From positions 1 to 14,759 of the forward strand of contig CAZEWI010000013.1 of the NCBI GenBank assembly GCA_964514455.1: a DNA stretch of 14,759 nt. Reading direction: 5' to 3'. Below are positions 1,898 through 4,768 of this stretch, piece by piece. The translations under genes and the position numbers were made by a program. The notes under the pieces were generated by a model that worked only from the letters and a program-made list of their open reading frames with translations, made no database searches and was not told where the DNA came from. Each line of letters opens with the position of its first letter. Positions within the stretch are counted from its first letter, which is position 1. This stretch comes from an uncultured Bacteroidales bacterium (GTDB lineage Bacteria > Pseudomonadota > Alphaproteobacteria > Rs-D84).

Positions 1898-1912
1898 AAA
1901 ATTGAATATATT

Positions 1913-1941
1913 AAAAAAAGCCGGTAATTACGGCTTTTTTT
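1913..1941. terminator. Bidirectional terminator between convergent pyk and the nuclease gene
   Basis: Stem agccg(1919-1923)/cggct(1931-1935), flanked by A7 (1913-1919) and T7 (1935-1941). Confidence 0.65.
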
Positions 1942-1946
1942 ATTAA

Positions 1947-3062
1947 TTATTTTCCCGATTTTCTACGGTTGCAACTTTTACAAAGCATTTGGCAGTTTTC
2001 GCTATTAGTTTTTCCTCCAGAATGCCAAGGGTCAATATGATCGGCTTCCATTTCATCAATTTCAAAATGTTCTCCGCAAACTTCGCAAATTCCATTTTGC
2101 CGTTCGTATGCTTCTCGCTTCATATTTTCAGTAAAAGCCCGAATATTCAAAGCCCGTTCATTCTTTTTTCCACTTAGTAAGTATTCGTAAATACCTTTTT
2201 TATTTGTAACATCATCATCAAGTATTAAACGATTGATTTCTGATTCAAGTTCAGTAGTATCGTATTGATTTTTATTATATTCATTATAAAGGAATCCCCA
2301 CTCAACACTTTTCATAATATCGCGATATTTTGGAAATACTGTTTTAACCCATTCAATTACAGAATTAAAATATAACCATAATTCACTGGAATTTTGATCG
2401 TGTTGATGTTGTCCCATATATTCACGAATTCCAGAATCTGTGTTTTTTGTATTATTACTAATCCATTTAATAGCAGTTTCTAAATACTTCTGTCTAATAC
2501 AAGAGCCGGACATATATTTTGAAGCAATACCATAAGCAGGACAATTAGTTTTACTAAAATATCTTTTAGCCTCGGTTAGCCAAGAACCACGATAAATAGC
2601 ATTTCTAATTTCTTGATCTTCTAATTTTTCACCAGCGATATTTATGATTTGAAACCAATCAATAATTTCCGAATCGGTTCCATTACTGCAAATATAAATC
2701 TGAAGTTTATATTTTAATATTTTTTCTTGTTCGTCAGATTCAAAACTATGAAAAGGTCTTTCATCAATAGAAAAATCATTATCAAGAAATTTACATATAG
2801 AAAGAGTCCTTTGTTGCCCATCCAACAATTCGTATTTATCATCAGAAGTTTTAATCCAATACATAACATTTAGAGGGTAACCTTTTATAATAGTGCGAAT
2901 CACTTCGCTCTGTTGTTTCGGAGCATAAACAAATTCTCGCTGATAAGCAGGGCGAATATCAAGCAATCCGCCATAGCCAACAACTCCTTCTTCATCACGA
3001 TTTAGATAGCCATTAAATAAATCACGAACAGTGATTTCAACAAGTTCAATTTTCATAGTCAT
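1947..3062 (-). CDS. DUF262 (ParB/Srx-like, DGQQR motif) + C-terminal HNH nuclease, GmrSD-like architecture, 371 aa
   Basis: N-terminal ...YELLDGQQRTLSI... (DGQQR at aa 81-85) typical of DUF262. C-terminus CEVCGEHF...ADHIDPWHSGGKTNSENCQMLCKSCNRRK is a CxxC...DH...N...CxxC HNH zinc-ribbon. Strong RBS AAGGAG lies 7 nt before the ATG at 3062. Confidence 0.85.
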   Translation of the reverse strand: MTMKIELVEITVRDLFNGYLNRDEEGVVGYGGLLDIRPAYQREFVYAPKQQSEVIRTIIKGYPLNVMYWIKTSDDKYELLDGQQRTLSICKFLDNDFSIDERPFHSFESDEQEKILKYKLQIYICSNGTDSEIIDWFQIINIAGEKLEDQEIRNAIYRGSWLTEAKRYFSKTNCPAYGIASKYMSGSCIRQKYLETAIKWISNNTKNTDSGIREYMGQHQHDQNSSELWLYFNSVIEWVKTVFPKYRDIMKSVEWGFLYNEYNKNQYDTTELESEINRLILDDDVTNKKGIYEYLLSGKKNERALNIRAFTENMKREAYERQNGICEVCGEHFEIDEMEADHIDPWHSGGKTNSENCQMLCKSCNRRKSGK

Positions 3063-3324
3063 TTTTAGACTCCTTTTTTAGTTTTATTAAGATTCGCACA
3101 TAAGTTCTTTTGTTATTTATTGTGCAATCATTGATTAGCCCATTTTTTAGATTTGTAGATATAGGATATACAAGATCAACGGGTTCTATATCTTCCTTAT
3201 CGTTATACGAGCATAAGTATTTCTCCCATTTATTTTGCCCTCTGTATTTTTTATCATTCCTGCGATACTCGTTGAACAAGGATACGAAAGAATGGTTGAA
3301 CTCTCTCTCTCTCTCTAGTAAACA
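3046..3324 (-). other. Open alternative frame downstream of the (AG)8 tract carrying a second MTase-type C-terminal motif (not called as an independent gene)
   Basis: The frame is open from 3324 to the stop at 3046, translated by hand through the tract. It ends ...LINDCTINNKRTYVRILIKLKKE. It has only a TTG start (3279) and no RBS. It joins the MTase frame if the tract gains 2 nt. Confidence 0.3.
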
Positions 3325-4153
3325 CTAGGTCTTTCCCATCTTCGCCTTTACGAAAAGCGACAATCTCAAACTGATTCGGATTATATTTATCAAGAAAAGT
3401 AATGGGAACTCCCATAACTCCATAATAATCACAAGGAATATCAGCAACTTTATCAACATTGATAGCATCATAATTATCGTATTTAGGGTATTCCTTTGGA
3501 TTGTACTTTTTATACAAAATCATTTTTTCATTTCGTTTATTATGAGAAAGATTTGTATACCAACTAACATTTCCAAAATTTTGAAATTCTCCATTTGTTT
3601 TTAGAAAACTTTTTACATGATTATAACCACACCAAATTTTATTTTCTTTAATCAACTTAAAGACTTCTTTATATGTTCTACAATTATCATTTCCAATAAT
3701 TAAAAACTTTTTATTATATTCTATCAATTGAGCGACATATTCGCGAAACAAAGAAAAAGGGGGATTTGTACAAACTATATCTGCTTCTTTTAATAATTCA
3801 ATACAGTCAGTACTACGGAAGTCTCCGTCACTAAACATCATTTCAATTTTTTCCACATCTTTACGATTTATTTTTTTATCTTTATTTTTATCTTTTTCTA
3901 TTATTAATTTATAGCTTGCAGAGTCTTTTTCATAATGAGTACAAATCAACTTTTTCAACCCAAGGTATTCAAAATTATCTGCAAAATACCTGAAAAAATG
4001 AGACCAATCTGGATCATCGCAATTACAATAAACAACTTTTCCCTTGAAATGTTCTTTGTAATTTTTTAATTCGTTTTCTATATCTGCTCTTTGAGTATAA
4101 AATTCGTCATTCTTGGCTTCTCGTGCTGAATGTAAATTAGAATTTTTAGCCAT
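3254..4153 (-). CDS. N6-adenine DNA methyltransferase, M.EcoRI family, 299 aa from ATG 4153
   Basis: MAKNSNLHSAREAKNDEFYTQ, VVYCNCDDP, catalytic TNPPF (nt 3766-3755), GVMGVPITFLDKYNP, C-terminal FRKGEDGKDL...PFFRILV. The track start at 4165 is TTG. The ATG at 4153 with GGGGA upstream is preferred and matches the family N-terminus. Confidence 0.9.
   Translation of the reverse strand: MAKNSNLHSAREAKNDEFYTQRADIENELKNYKEHFKGKVVYCNCDDPDWSHFFRYFADNFEYLGLKKLICTHYEKDSASYKLIIEKDKNKDKKINRKDVEKIEMMFSDGDFRSTDCIELLKEADIVCTNPPFSLFREYVAQLIEYNKKFLIIGNDNCRTYKEVFKLIKENKIWCGYNHVKSFLKTNGEFQNFGNVSWYTNLSHNKRNEKMILYKKYNPKEYPKYDNYDAINVDKVADIPCDYYGVMGVPITFLDKYNPNQFEIVAFRKGEDGKDLVFTRERERVQPFFRILVQRVSQE
3301..3316 (-). 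repeat. Dinucleotide simple sequence repeat (AG)8 on the coding strand, inside the MTase 3' end
   Basis: ctctctctctctctct on the + strand, read directly. It encodes RERER in ...LVFT-RERER-VQPFFRILV. Confidence 0.95.
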
Positions 4154-4171
4154 TACAATCCCCAAAATTAT

Positions 4172-4200
4172 AAAAAATAACCGCCAATAAGAATGGCGGT
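4172..4200 (-). terminator. Unidirectional rho-independent terminator (minus strand)
   Basis: 7 bp stem accgcca(4200-4194)/tggcggt(4186-4180) on the minus strand, 7 nt loop, followed by ttattttttat. There is no T-run on the + strand side. Confidence 0.7.
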
Positions 4201-4400
4201 CGGGGTGTGGTAATCAGTTTATCATTGATTCTGGGTCTTTGGACAAGTCCTATTGTATAACTTCCAGATCCCCAACTAAATCAGGGATATAACGGTGCAA
4301 AAACACCGAAACATCAGAATTACGATGTTTTTAACACCGGATAAACAGGGCCACCACAGCCCGAACCCAATTCCCATCGGATTCAAAAAAGAGTATAGAA
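4172..4400 (-). ncRNA. Candidate structured RNA of unknown family (or long structured 3' UTR of the DUF721 gene)
   Basis: A ~230 nt non-coding gap, clearly richer in G/C than its flanks. It has several local hairpins: aaacatc/gatgttt, cggtg/caccg, atccc/gggat, tctgg/ccaga enclosing ggac/gtcc. A long-range 5'/3' pairing (gttcgggctgtggt with accacaccccgac) sits next to the terminator. TATAAT at 4412-4407 (minus) is a possible own promoter. Confidence 0.35.
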
Positions 4401-4429
4401 AAGTTTATTATAAAATGCTAGTTTTATTT

Positions 4430-4768
4430 TTAATTCACAAATTTTATTTTTTTGATTGTATTATGGCCGTAGTAGGAGTTTAATTTTTCTAATAATTTTT
4501 TTTCTGAATAGGACATCAATAAAGCACTTGATTTTGATATCATTTTAACGGTCAGAGTCCGGTCTTCTTTTCCTTTTGTTAGTTTGACTACTTTTATCTG
4601 ATTCGCCATTTCATCTCCGACTATATTCGCCCAATTCATAATTAAATCCGCATCGCTGATATTGCCTCCCAATGTTTTTACAACTCTATTTAATGAGGCC
4701 GAAAAATGACAAGGGTGTTTTACCCTCTCTTCAAATTTGAATTTCTTAAAAGTCTTCGTTATACTCAA
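4430..4768 (-). CDS. DUF721 (DciA-like) protein, 112 aa
   Basis: ...LIMNWANIVGDEMANQIKVVKL...RTLTVKMISKSSALLMSYSEKKLLEKLNSYYG...IKKIKFV fits the DUF721 pattern. The start is TTG at 4768 and overlaps the rpoH stop by 23 nt, so the start is uncertain. Confidence 0.7.
   Translation of the reverse strand: MSITKTFKKFKFEERVKHPCHFSASLNRVVKTLGGNISDADLIMNWANIVGDEMANQIKVVKLTKGKEDRTLTVKMISKSSALLMSYSEKKLLEKLNSYYGHNTIKKIKFVN

Follow-up and report, generated by a model that had tools for sequence, protein, structure and literature searches.

The (AG)8 repeat near the 3' end of an EcoRI-family DNA methyltransferase gene is probably a slipped-strand contingency site, which would act as a three-position selector of the C-terminal ending of the enzyme and not as an on/off switch. 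We observed the anatomy of this locus, polymorphism of its tract length, conservation of the design among related loci, and purifying selection on all three endings. From these observations we infer that each of the three isoforms is an active DNA methylase and that selection acts on some property in which they differ. Slippage in the (AG)n tract would shift translation from one to another of three overlapping endings that selection maintains. Each frame would supply a terminal strand with the family-invariant Arg, and hence a complete enzyme at every tract length, and the cell would never be left with the nuclease but without the methylase. The window referred to below is the whole stretch of 14,759 nucleotides that was analyzed.

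The repeat tract and the three endings behind it

The methyltransferase gene is located on the minus strand at 3254-4153 (ATG at 4153, stop at 3254-3256) and encodes, as isoform A in the present frame, an N6-adenine DNA methyltransferase of 299 aa. Isoform A matched the EcoRI_methylase family of Pfam (PF13651) with 391 bits against a cutoff of 26.4, and the gene product also matched the PADLOC model MTase_II (E 8e-107). The catalytic (D/N)PP(F/Y) motif was present as TNPPFS; in the protein alignment A1, N130, P132, and S134 do not vary, and P131 and F133 hardly do.

The slippery tract, read from the sequence, occupies positions 3301-3316 of the minus strand ((CT)8 on the plus strand). We confirmed the statement of an earlier, sequence-only reading of this DNA that the tract encodes RERER in the present frame, 20 codons ahead of the stop. 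It is uninterrupted, lies inside the methyltransferase reading frame, and is the sole dinucleotide array in the whole window. An (AG)8 16-mer with at most two mismatches is expected by chance 0.01 times per window. GAG accounts for 5% of the Glu codons and AGA for 18% of the Arg codons in the rest of the gene, so that a pure AG run is atypical of its codon usage and is not what coding for RERER would give at that place; this reasoning rests on the gene in the window, being circular across loci that were selected by pattern. The codon usage argues that the (AG) repeat would be kept as DNA and would not be a by-product of RERER coding.

Translation of tract lengths from n = 4 to n = 12 assigned the downstream reading frame by length modulo 3: frame A at n = 5, 8, and 11, frame B at n = 4, 7, and 10, and frame C at n = 6, 9, and 12. 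All three frames are open past the tract, about 255 nt behind it being read in all three, and each contains its own copy of the terminal strand of the family (consensus Y/F-x-R-I/V-x-I/V). Tail A consists of 15 residues, VQPFFRILVQRVSQE, followed by the stop (3254-3301, minus strand); it ends in ...VQPFFRILV, with the terminal strand FFRILV at 3275-3292, which corresponds to the last β-strand (residues 290-295) predicted by AlphaFold2. Tail B, read at (AG)7 and (AG)10, consists of 37(-38) residues, (S)STILSYPCSTSIAGMIKNTEGKINGRNTYARITIRKI, followed by the stop (3186-3300, minus strand, stop at 3186-3188); it ends in ...GKINGRNTYARITI and carries the terminal strand YARITI at 3198-3215. Tail C, read at (AG)6 and (AG)9, consists of 84(-85) residues, FNHSFVSLFNEY...EPVDLVYPISTNLKNGLINDCTINNKRTYVRILIKLKKESKNDYEN, followed by the stop (3046-3300, minus strand, stop at 3046-3048), with the terminal strand YVRILI at 3085-3102 (...NNKRTYVRILI). 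The three outcomes translated in the earlier reading were essentially correct for tail A and for the loss of one unit (37-38 residues, stop ending at 3186), but the gain of one unit gives 84-85 residues instead of the 70 that it reported. The shorter alternative tail, which it called unrelated, is not so, and neither is the longer one: both carry a terminal motif of their own. The distal part of tail C is also listed as a separate 77-aa ORF with a TTG start (3046-3279, minus strand), which gene callers could annotate as a separate hypothetical protein.

Six-frame translation of the 14.8-kb window returned the terminal motif exactly three times, once per frame and all within 210 nt, and these three copies are those of tails A, B, and C. 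In each of three protein alignments of the family, the terminal-strand Arg does not vary. In a MAFFT alignment, ending B matches the distal portion of ending C (YP..T......N.....GK.TY.R..I), and these two endings look like paralogous copies.

The hypothetical frameshifted forms scored 401 bits (B) and 395 bits (C) against PF13651, both exceeding isoform A, and form C reaches positions 1-344 of the 345-position profile, whereas form A stops at 306. Judged by these matches, both frameshifted products would be full-length EcoRI-family proteins.

The AlphaFold2 model of isoform A (pLDDT 83, pTM 0.81) places the tract in a flexible, low-confidence hairpin (strands 278-280 and 283-285) that precedes the last strand of a small C-terminal domain, a position that fits the tolerance of an RE insertion in the (AG)11 allele described below. 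The tail in a model of a form C protein had pLDDT values of 33-67 and is unreliable there. A sequence search of solved structures found no relative, and a Foldseek comparison of the form A model with the PDB returned generic Rossmann methyltransferases only (best E 0.009). The C-terminal domain of the present enzyme is likely the target-recognition domain, as judged by N6-adenine methyltransferases whose motifs run from I to IV and then to the TRD; M.EcoRI is presumably a methyltransferase of the gamma group.

Tract polymorphism, related loci, and selection on the hidden frames

Within the window's own lineage, tract length varies from one assembly to another. The alignment of the window with L206, an independent assembly, spans 5,958 nt and shows a single gap but no mismatch; the gap is explained by (AG)11 in L206 in place of (AG)8. 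The (AG)11 tract was also found in L205 and L209, from sibling runs, and the (AG)11 version of the window's protein had an exact match in a public collection; searched in the same way, the hypothetical forms B and C of the window gave none. All four complete assemblies of this lineage are in frame A, with (AG)8 once and (AG)11 three times, although those with (AG)11 come from runs with consecutive accessions, which might not be independent of one another. Frame A could be favored in the window's own lineage. Additionally, a 44-kb contig of the window's own organism (L208, Logan SRR8925793) ends inside the tract (L208:1-16), as would be expected if length heterogeneity had made the de Bruijn graph branch there, although this is only suggestive.

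Differences of a single unit were found among near-identical relatives. The flanks of L089 (n = 6) and L118 (n = 7) are 100% and 99.8% identical, and L086 (n = 6) is approximately 98% identical to L090 and L124 (n = 7). One lineage with nearly identical tails occurs in all three forms: A in L081 (n = 8), B in L082 and L083 (n = 10), and C in L084 and L085 (n = 9). These results support a hypermutable slipped-strand site, as had been proposed from the sequence alone, and the evidence is of two kinds: (AG)8 against (AG)11 in otherwise identical assemblies and the single-unit differences among relatives. Nor is the tract an assembly artefact, a possibility that the earlier reading had named.

DNA of related loci was obtained by look-ups of individual proteins and by scanning a DNA pattern against viral and metagenome contigs; a scan of genome contigs gave mostly canonical repeat-free members, and hence the DNA pattern was used for repeat-bearing loci. 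This pattern fixes the first 16 nt behind the tract, and those positions were left out of the conservation and selection statistics. The resulting 46 loci (40 distinct sequences) carry (AG)5-10, with a core identity of 46-100% (median 63.5%). The terminal motif is kept in all three frames in 32 of the 40 distinct sequences, and one or two endings have been lost in 7 of the 40, which indicates that the three-state design is not obligatory. The frame in use follows n modulo 3 with few exceptions, and the related assemblies are distributed over frames A, B, and C as 9:18:16, whereas an on/off gene would mostly be assembled in its ON frame. The tract was found in independent assemblies from NCBI, ENA, JGI, Logan, and IMG/VR, and the design occurs in Alphaproteobacteria, Bacteroidota, Fibrobacterota, Firmicutes, and IMG/VR viral contigs.

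The same endings were recovered among database proteins. The 120 best homologues (53-68% identity) include 28 with ending A, 17 with ending B, and 8 with ending C, which diverge exactly at the RERE position. Recurring ending modules are QPYFRILV (short), SIPGMIKNAEGKINGKxTYARITI, PSMPISGLMNNPKDTxVNGKSKYARILI, and DDVIRPxLNGKNxYRRITI, together with EPIDxFYP, behind which the distal part comes in at least five variants. In repeat-free members, some of these modules occur as the only ending. For example, L012 has a single open frame, no repeat tract, and a long tail (DDVIRPILNGKNIYRRVCI) of the type that forms one of the alternative frames in the repeat-bearing loci L007, L143, and L004.

Other repeats were identified at the same protein position. 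They comprise (G)10 in Fibrobacter intestinalis ATCC 43854, a cultured type-collection strain (L001:5903-6120, NZ_FUWU01000023.1), (G)8 in L019, (G)7 in L054, (GAAGA)10 in L004 (a Flavobacteriaceae MAG), and (AG)12 in L007 and L143, where its offset is different; behind each of these repeats, all three frames contain the terminal motif. In L212, tails A, B, and C are the same but (AG)n is replaced by (G)8. The tract has decayed in L210 and L144, in which the unused tails are truncated, and the invariant Arg is missing from tail B in L211. The repeat itself thus appears to be selected as a mutable element, as far as these substitutions indicate.

Purifying selection was detected on tails B and C in their own frames. 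In the region where B and C overlap, entropy was 1.09 at the wobble position of frame B as compared with 0.56 and 0.71 at the other two positions, and pooled Nei-Gojobori pN/pS was 0.39 for B and 0.67 for C as compared with 1.11 for the already-terminated frame, which served as the null. In the distal region coded by C only, pN/pS of frame C was 0.14, 0.22, and 0.12 in three groups, whereas the other frames had values of 0.84-2.3; in the window's group the values were 0.22 in frame C and 1.24 and 2.14 in the other frames. Because the sets include loci whose tract length currently gives frame A or B, endings that are not in use would still be maintained, suggesting that lineages pass through all frames.

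Variants of the design were also observed. An extra indel in the tails of L113, L120, and L106 fuses the start of tail B to distal tail C or scrambles the frames, making these loci two-state or one-state variants. A Clostridia MAG (L014:5957-6400) has a (CAGA)6 tetranucleotide tract at the same position, and in its other two frames a larger portion of the C-terminal domain (GVPITFLDKYNPEQFEI...YARILI) is present in extra copies, which suggests either whole-subdomain alternatives or tandem partial duplications. In a Muribaculaceae MAG (L003:5880-6300), and likewise in the 507-aa protein P0027, a second (AG)n lies within tail C (...ALAERERES...), and the frames behind it lead to the motif-bearing NATNLQNGLVNDCRINGHKTYVRVLI or ALPGVIKNAEGKIHGKPTYARILI; two repeats in series could provide more than three C-termini.

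The nuclease partner and the surroundings of the cassette

A DUF262 (GmrSD_N)-HNH nuclease (Pfam PF03235 and PF01844) is encoded on the minus strand at 1947-3062, downstream of the methyltransferase. It matched the PADLOC REase_II model PDLC03418 over its full length (E 2e-130) and is likely the restriction component. The DUF262 domain is typical too of modification-dependent GmrSD enzymes, so that the nuclease may cut either unmethylated or methylated DNA. A stand-alone methyltransferase with a separate nuclease gene has the layout of a Type II restriction-modification (R-M) system (PADLOC MTase_II and REase_II). By tblastn, the nuclease gene was located directly behind the methyltransferase gene in most of 124 related loci, both among those with a tract and among those lacking one, indicating that the two genes form a conserved cassette. 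The sequence-only reading had warned that switching a methyltransferase beside a classical restriction endonuclease would be dangerous; the partner is indeed Type II REase-like, but no tract length would remove the methyltransferase.

The nuclease gene has an AGGAG Shine-Dalgarno sequence at 3070-3074 (minus strand), 7 nt upstream of its ATG (3060-3062) and within the coding sequence of tail C. Because the nuclease has this site of its own, translational coupling to the methyltransferase is not obligatory. The tail C stop and the nuclease start overlap by 17 nt in the window. The stop of the longest tail lies -23 to +43 nt from the nuclease start in most (AG)n loci with the nuclease directly behind, and -1 to +14 nt from it in four of the five other-repeat loci in which the nuclease was found. 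The A and B stops of tightly packed (AG)n loci lie 94-257 nt upstream of the nuclease start. Only isoform C terminates at the nuclease start, and so coupling to the nuclease may differ among isoforms. Coupling would not be the whole story, since L081-L085, L104, and L109 have no DUF262-HNH nuclease within 2.2 kb downstream, yet keep the tract and the three tails. The neighbors in the nuclease-less lineage (L081) had no Pfam or PHROG matches, and 'phage' would be a tentative label for this context. In L086, L091, L100, L112, and L115, an extra 845-1045 nt (about 1 kb) lies between tail C and the DUF262-HNH gene.

The upstream edge of the cassette is marked by a terminator-like hairpin at 4179-4201 (minus strand), just upstream of the methyltransferase start, and the downstream edge by another at 1912-1942 (plus strand), between the convergent nuclease and pyruvate kinase genes. 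No terminator-like site was found between methyltransferase and nuclease, and Rfam and tRNA scans gave no match in or beside the cassette. The intergenic region at 4166-4430, between dciA (4430-4768) and the methyltransferase start, has G+C-rich stretches amid AT-rich DNA; it holds the terminator-like hairpins at 4179-4201 and 4348-4362, has no Rfam or tRNA match, and may be the junction of an inserted R-M cassette. The host is an uncultured alphaproteobacterium of low GC content (33.6%), its MreB protein is 75-82% identical to MAG proteins labeled 'Rickettsiales/Alphaproteobacteria bacterium', and GapR is encoded nearby.

Readings of the proposed selector and comparison with known systems

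As the arrangement of the locus suggests, the isoforms most likely differ in how they recognize DNA or in methylation pattern, in their translational coupling to the nuclease, or in both. What sets the endings apart is the module inserted ahead of the final strand in the C-terminal, probably DNA-recognition, domain, and recognition or methylation pattern is therefore a likely difference. Altered recognition would fit because the variable module lies in the putative recognition domain and because distal tail C is diverse. More specifically, and only tentatively, the repeat may act as a frame-encoded specificity switch, picking among three recognition-domain endings with different methylation and/or nuclease coupling while the enzyme is never lost. 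If so, a clonal population or a phage stock would contain up to three methyltransferase isoforms, phase variation would have been made safe for a Type II R-M system, and such switches would be widespread in gut and rumen bacteria and in viral-classified contigs, with interchangeable repeat types.

The alternative that survives best, although we regard it as improbable, is frameshift buffering only: the tract would be a hazard, tails B and C would just avert a lethal loss of the methyltransferase, the isoforms would be equivalent, and switching would be non-adaptive. Such a buffer would be useful ahead of a Type II REase-like partner, yet the loci mentioned above that lack a DUF262-HNH gene within 2.2 kb retain the tract and all three tails. 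Each tail restores the same essential strand and invariant Arg, as buffering would require, but a mere buffer needs neither the length of tail C nor a distal module in at least five versions. Synonymous changes could remove the hazard, and yet the pure repeat persists against the codon usage of the gene and is substituted at the same site by other repeat types ((G)8, (G)10, (GAAGA)10, and (AG)12). The restriction of the window's own lineage to frame A agrees with buffering.

Far less likely is the classical ON/OFF phase variation that the sequence-only reading had suggested, in which an active methyltransferase would be made from a single frame, the remaining two being OFF. The tract is hypermutable, AG tracts switch off some R-M methyltransferases, such as the Type III enzyme MmyCI with (AG)12 (PMC3498834), and the window's own lineage, again, is in frame A only. 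Against this, the alternative products are predicted to be full-length with Pfam scores above that of form A, conservation and purifying selection are seen in tails B and C, and assemblies in B and C are commoner than those in A. Moreover, the repeat-free L012 uses as its sole ending a tail type that is seen in an alternative frame elsewhere, and an OFF state beside a Type II REase-like nuclease would be self-destructive. A sequencing or assembly artefact, or a chance repeat without a biological role, can be dismissed almost entirely, for even though dinucleotide repeats can be miscounted and the L208 contig ends in the tract, the chance expectation is small, the tract recurs in independent assemblies from five sources, and three-frame coding downstream cannot be artefactual.

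The preferred reading, a selector of endings, has its closest precedent in the C-terminal phase variation proposed for Helicobacter canadensis (Snyder et al. 2010, PMC2823697), in which a simple repeat near the 3' end likewise alters the C-terminus without abolishing expression and tract-length heterogeneity drives the variation. The present locus is of the same kind in that its tract lies near the 3' end and the alternative frames change only the C-terminus (37 and 84 residues). In contrast to the present case, the H. canadensis tracts are homopolymers, most alternative ends comprise few residues, and no conservation or function was shown; here, conservation across phyla and purifying selection apply to all three ends, and an essential structural element is rebuilt by every one of them. 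Our literature search found this concept of C-terminal phase variation, and no three-frame motif-restoring endings described for EcoRI-family enzymes.

In Type I and Type III systems, phase variation of methyltransferases is known to act as an on/off switch. Phasevarions, in which simple sequence repeats (SSR) switch Type III mod or Type I hsdM/hsdS genes ON and OFF (PMC5909438, PMC7383803), share with the present locus a slipped-strand repeat in an R-M methyltransferase gene, as in the Type III M.MmyCI gene with its (AG)12 tract (PMC3498834), and their stochastic heritable switching generates subpopulations. They differ in that early truncation leads to the OFF state, which is safe because restriction depends on the methylase subunit. 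The present methyltransferase is, unlike these, Type II-like and stand-alone with a separate nuclease, and would be OFF at no tract length. An off state should be suicidal in a Type II system with a separate nuclease, and the locus displays a different solution, namely a triple-overlapping coding sequence that would yield a complete enzyme with a different ending at each repeat length. It is rare in bacteria for three overlapping reading frames each to show measurable purifying selection.

Specificity switching of Type I hsdS by recombination between alternative TRD cassettes (PMC7394358) resembles the present locus in holding alternative modules for the variable part of a methylase in one locus, one being expressed at a time. 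The hsdS modules are separate inverted or duplicated cassettes that are recombined, whereas here they are superimposed in three frames and chosen by repeat length; a change of specificity is a feature of hsdS and here only a candidate. M.EcoRI and the canonical members of PF13651 resemble the present enzyme in fold family, in the NPPF motif, and in the terminal ...INGK-x-x-Y-F-R-I-L-I strand, but have a single short ending (KDLSINGKCPYFRILI) with no repeat and no alternative frames. The partner here is not R.EcoRI but the DUF262-HNH nuclease. The earlier suggestion that the tract is an acquired insertion relative to M.EcoRI is borne out in so far as canonical members are tract-free; it falls short in that the tract is contained in a larger, conserved module of three frames.

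In annotation, tails B and C are at present called truncated, extended, or separate small ORFs, and methylome variation arising from such loci would be missed. Fibrobacter intestinalis ATCC 43854 is a cultured carrier of a (G)10 version, and the idea is directly testable in it.

A second kind of variation was observed in the core of the enzyme. P0031 and P0086 differ from P0011, P0070, and P0082 in one block at columns ~150-290 of alignment A1, which spans from just past the NPPF motif to WFTNLD, while the N-termini and the tails are nearly identical. This block suggests allelic mosaicism, and the methyltransferase core may thus contain a second variable region.
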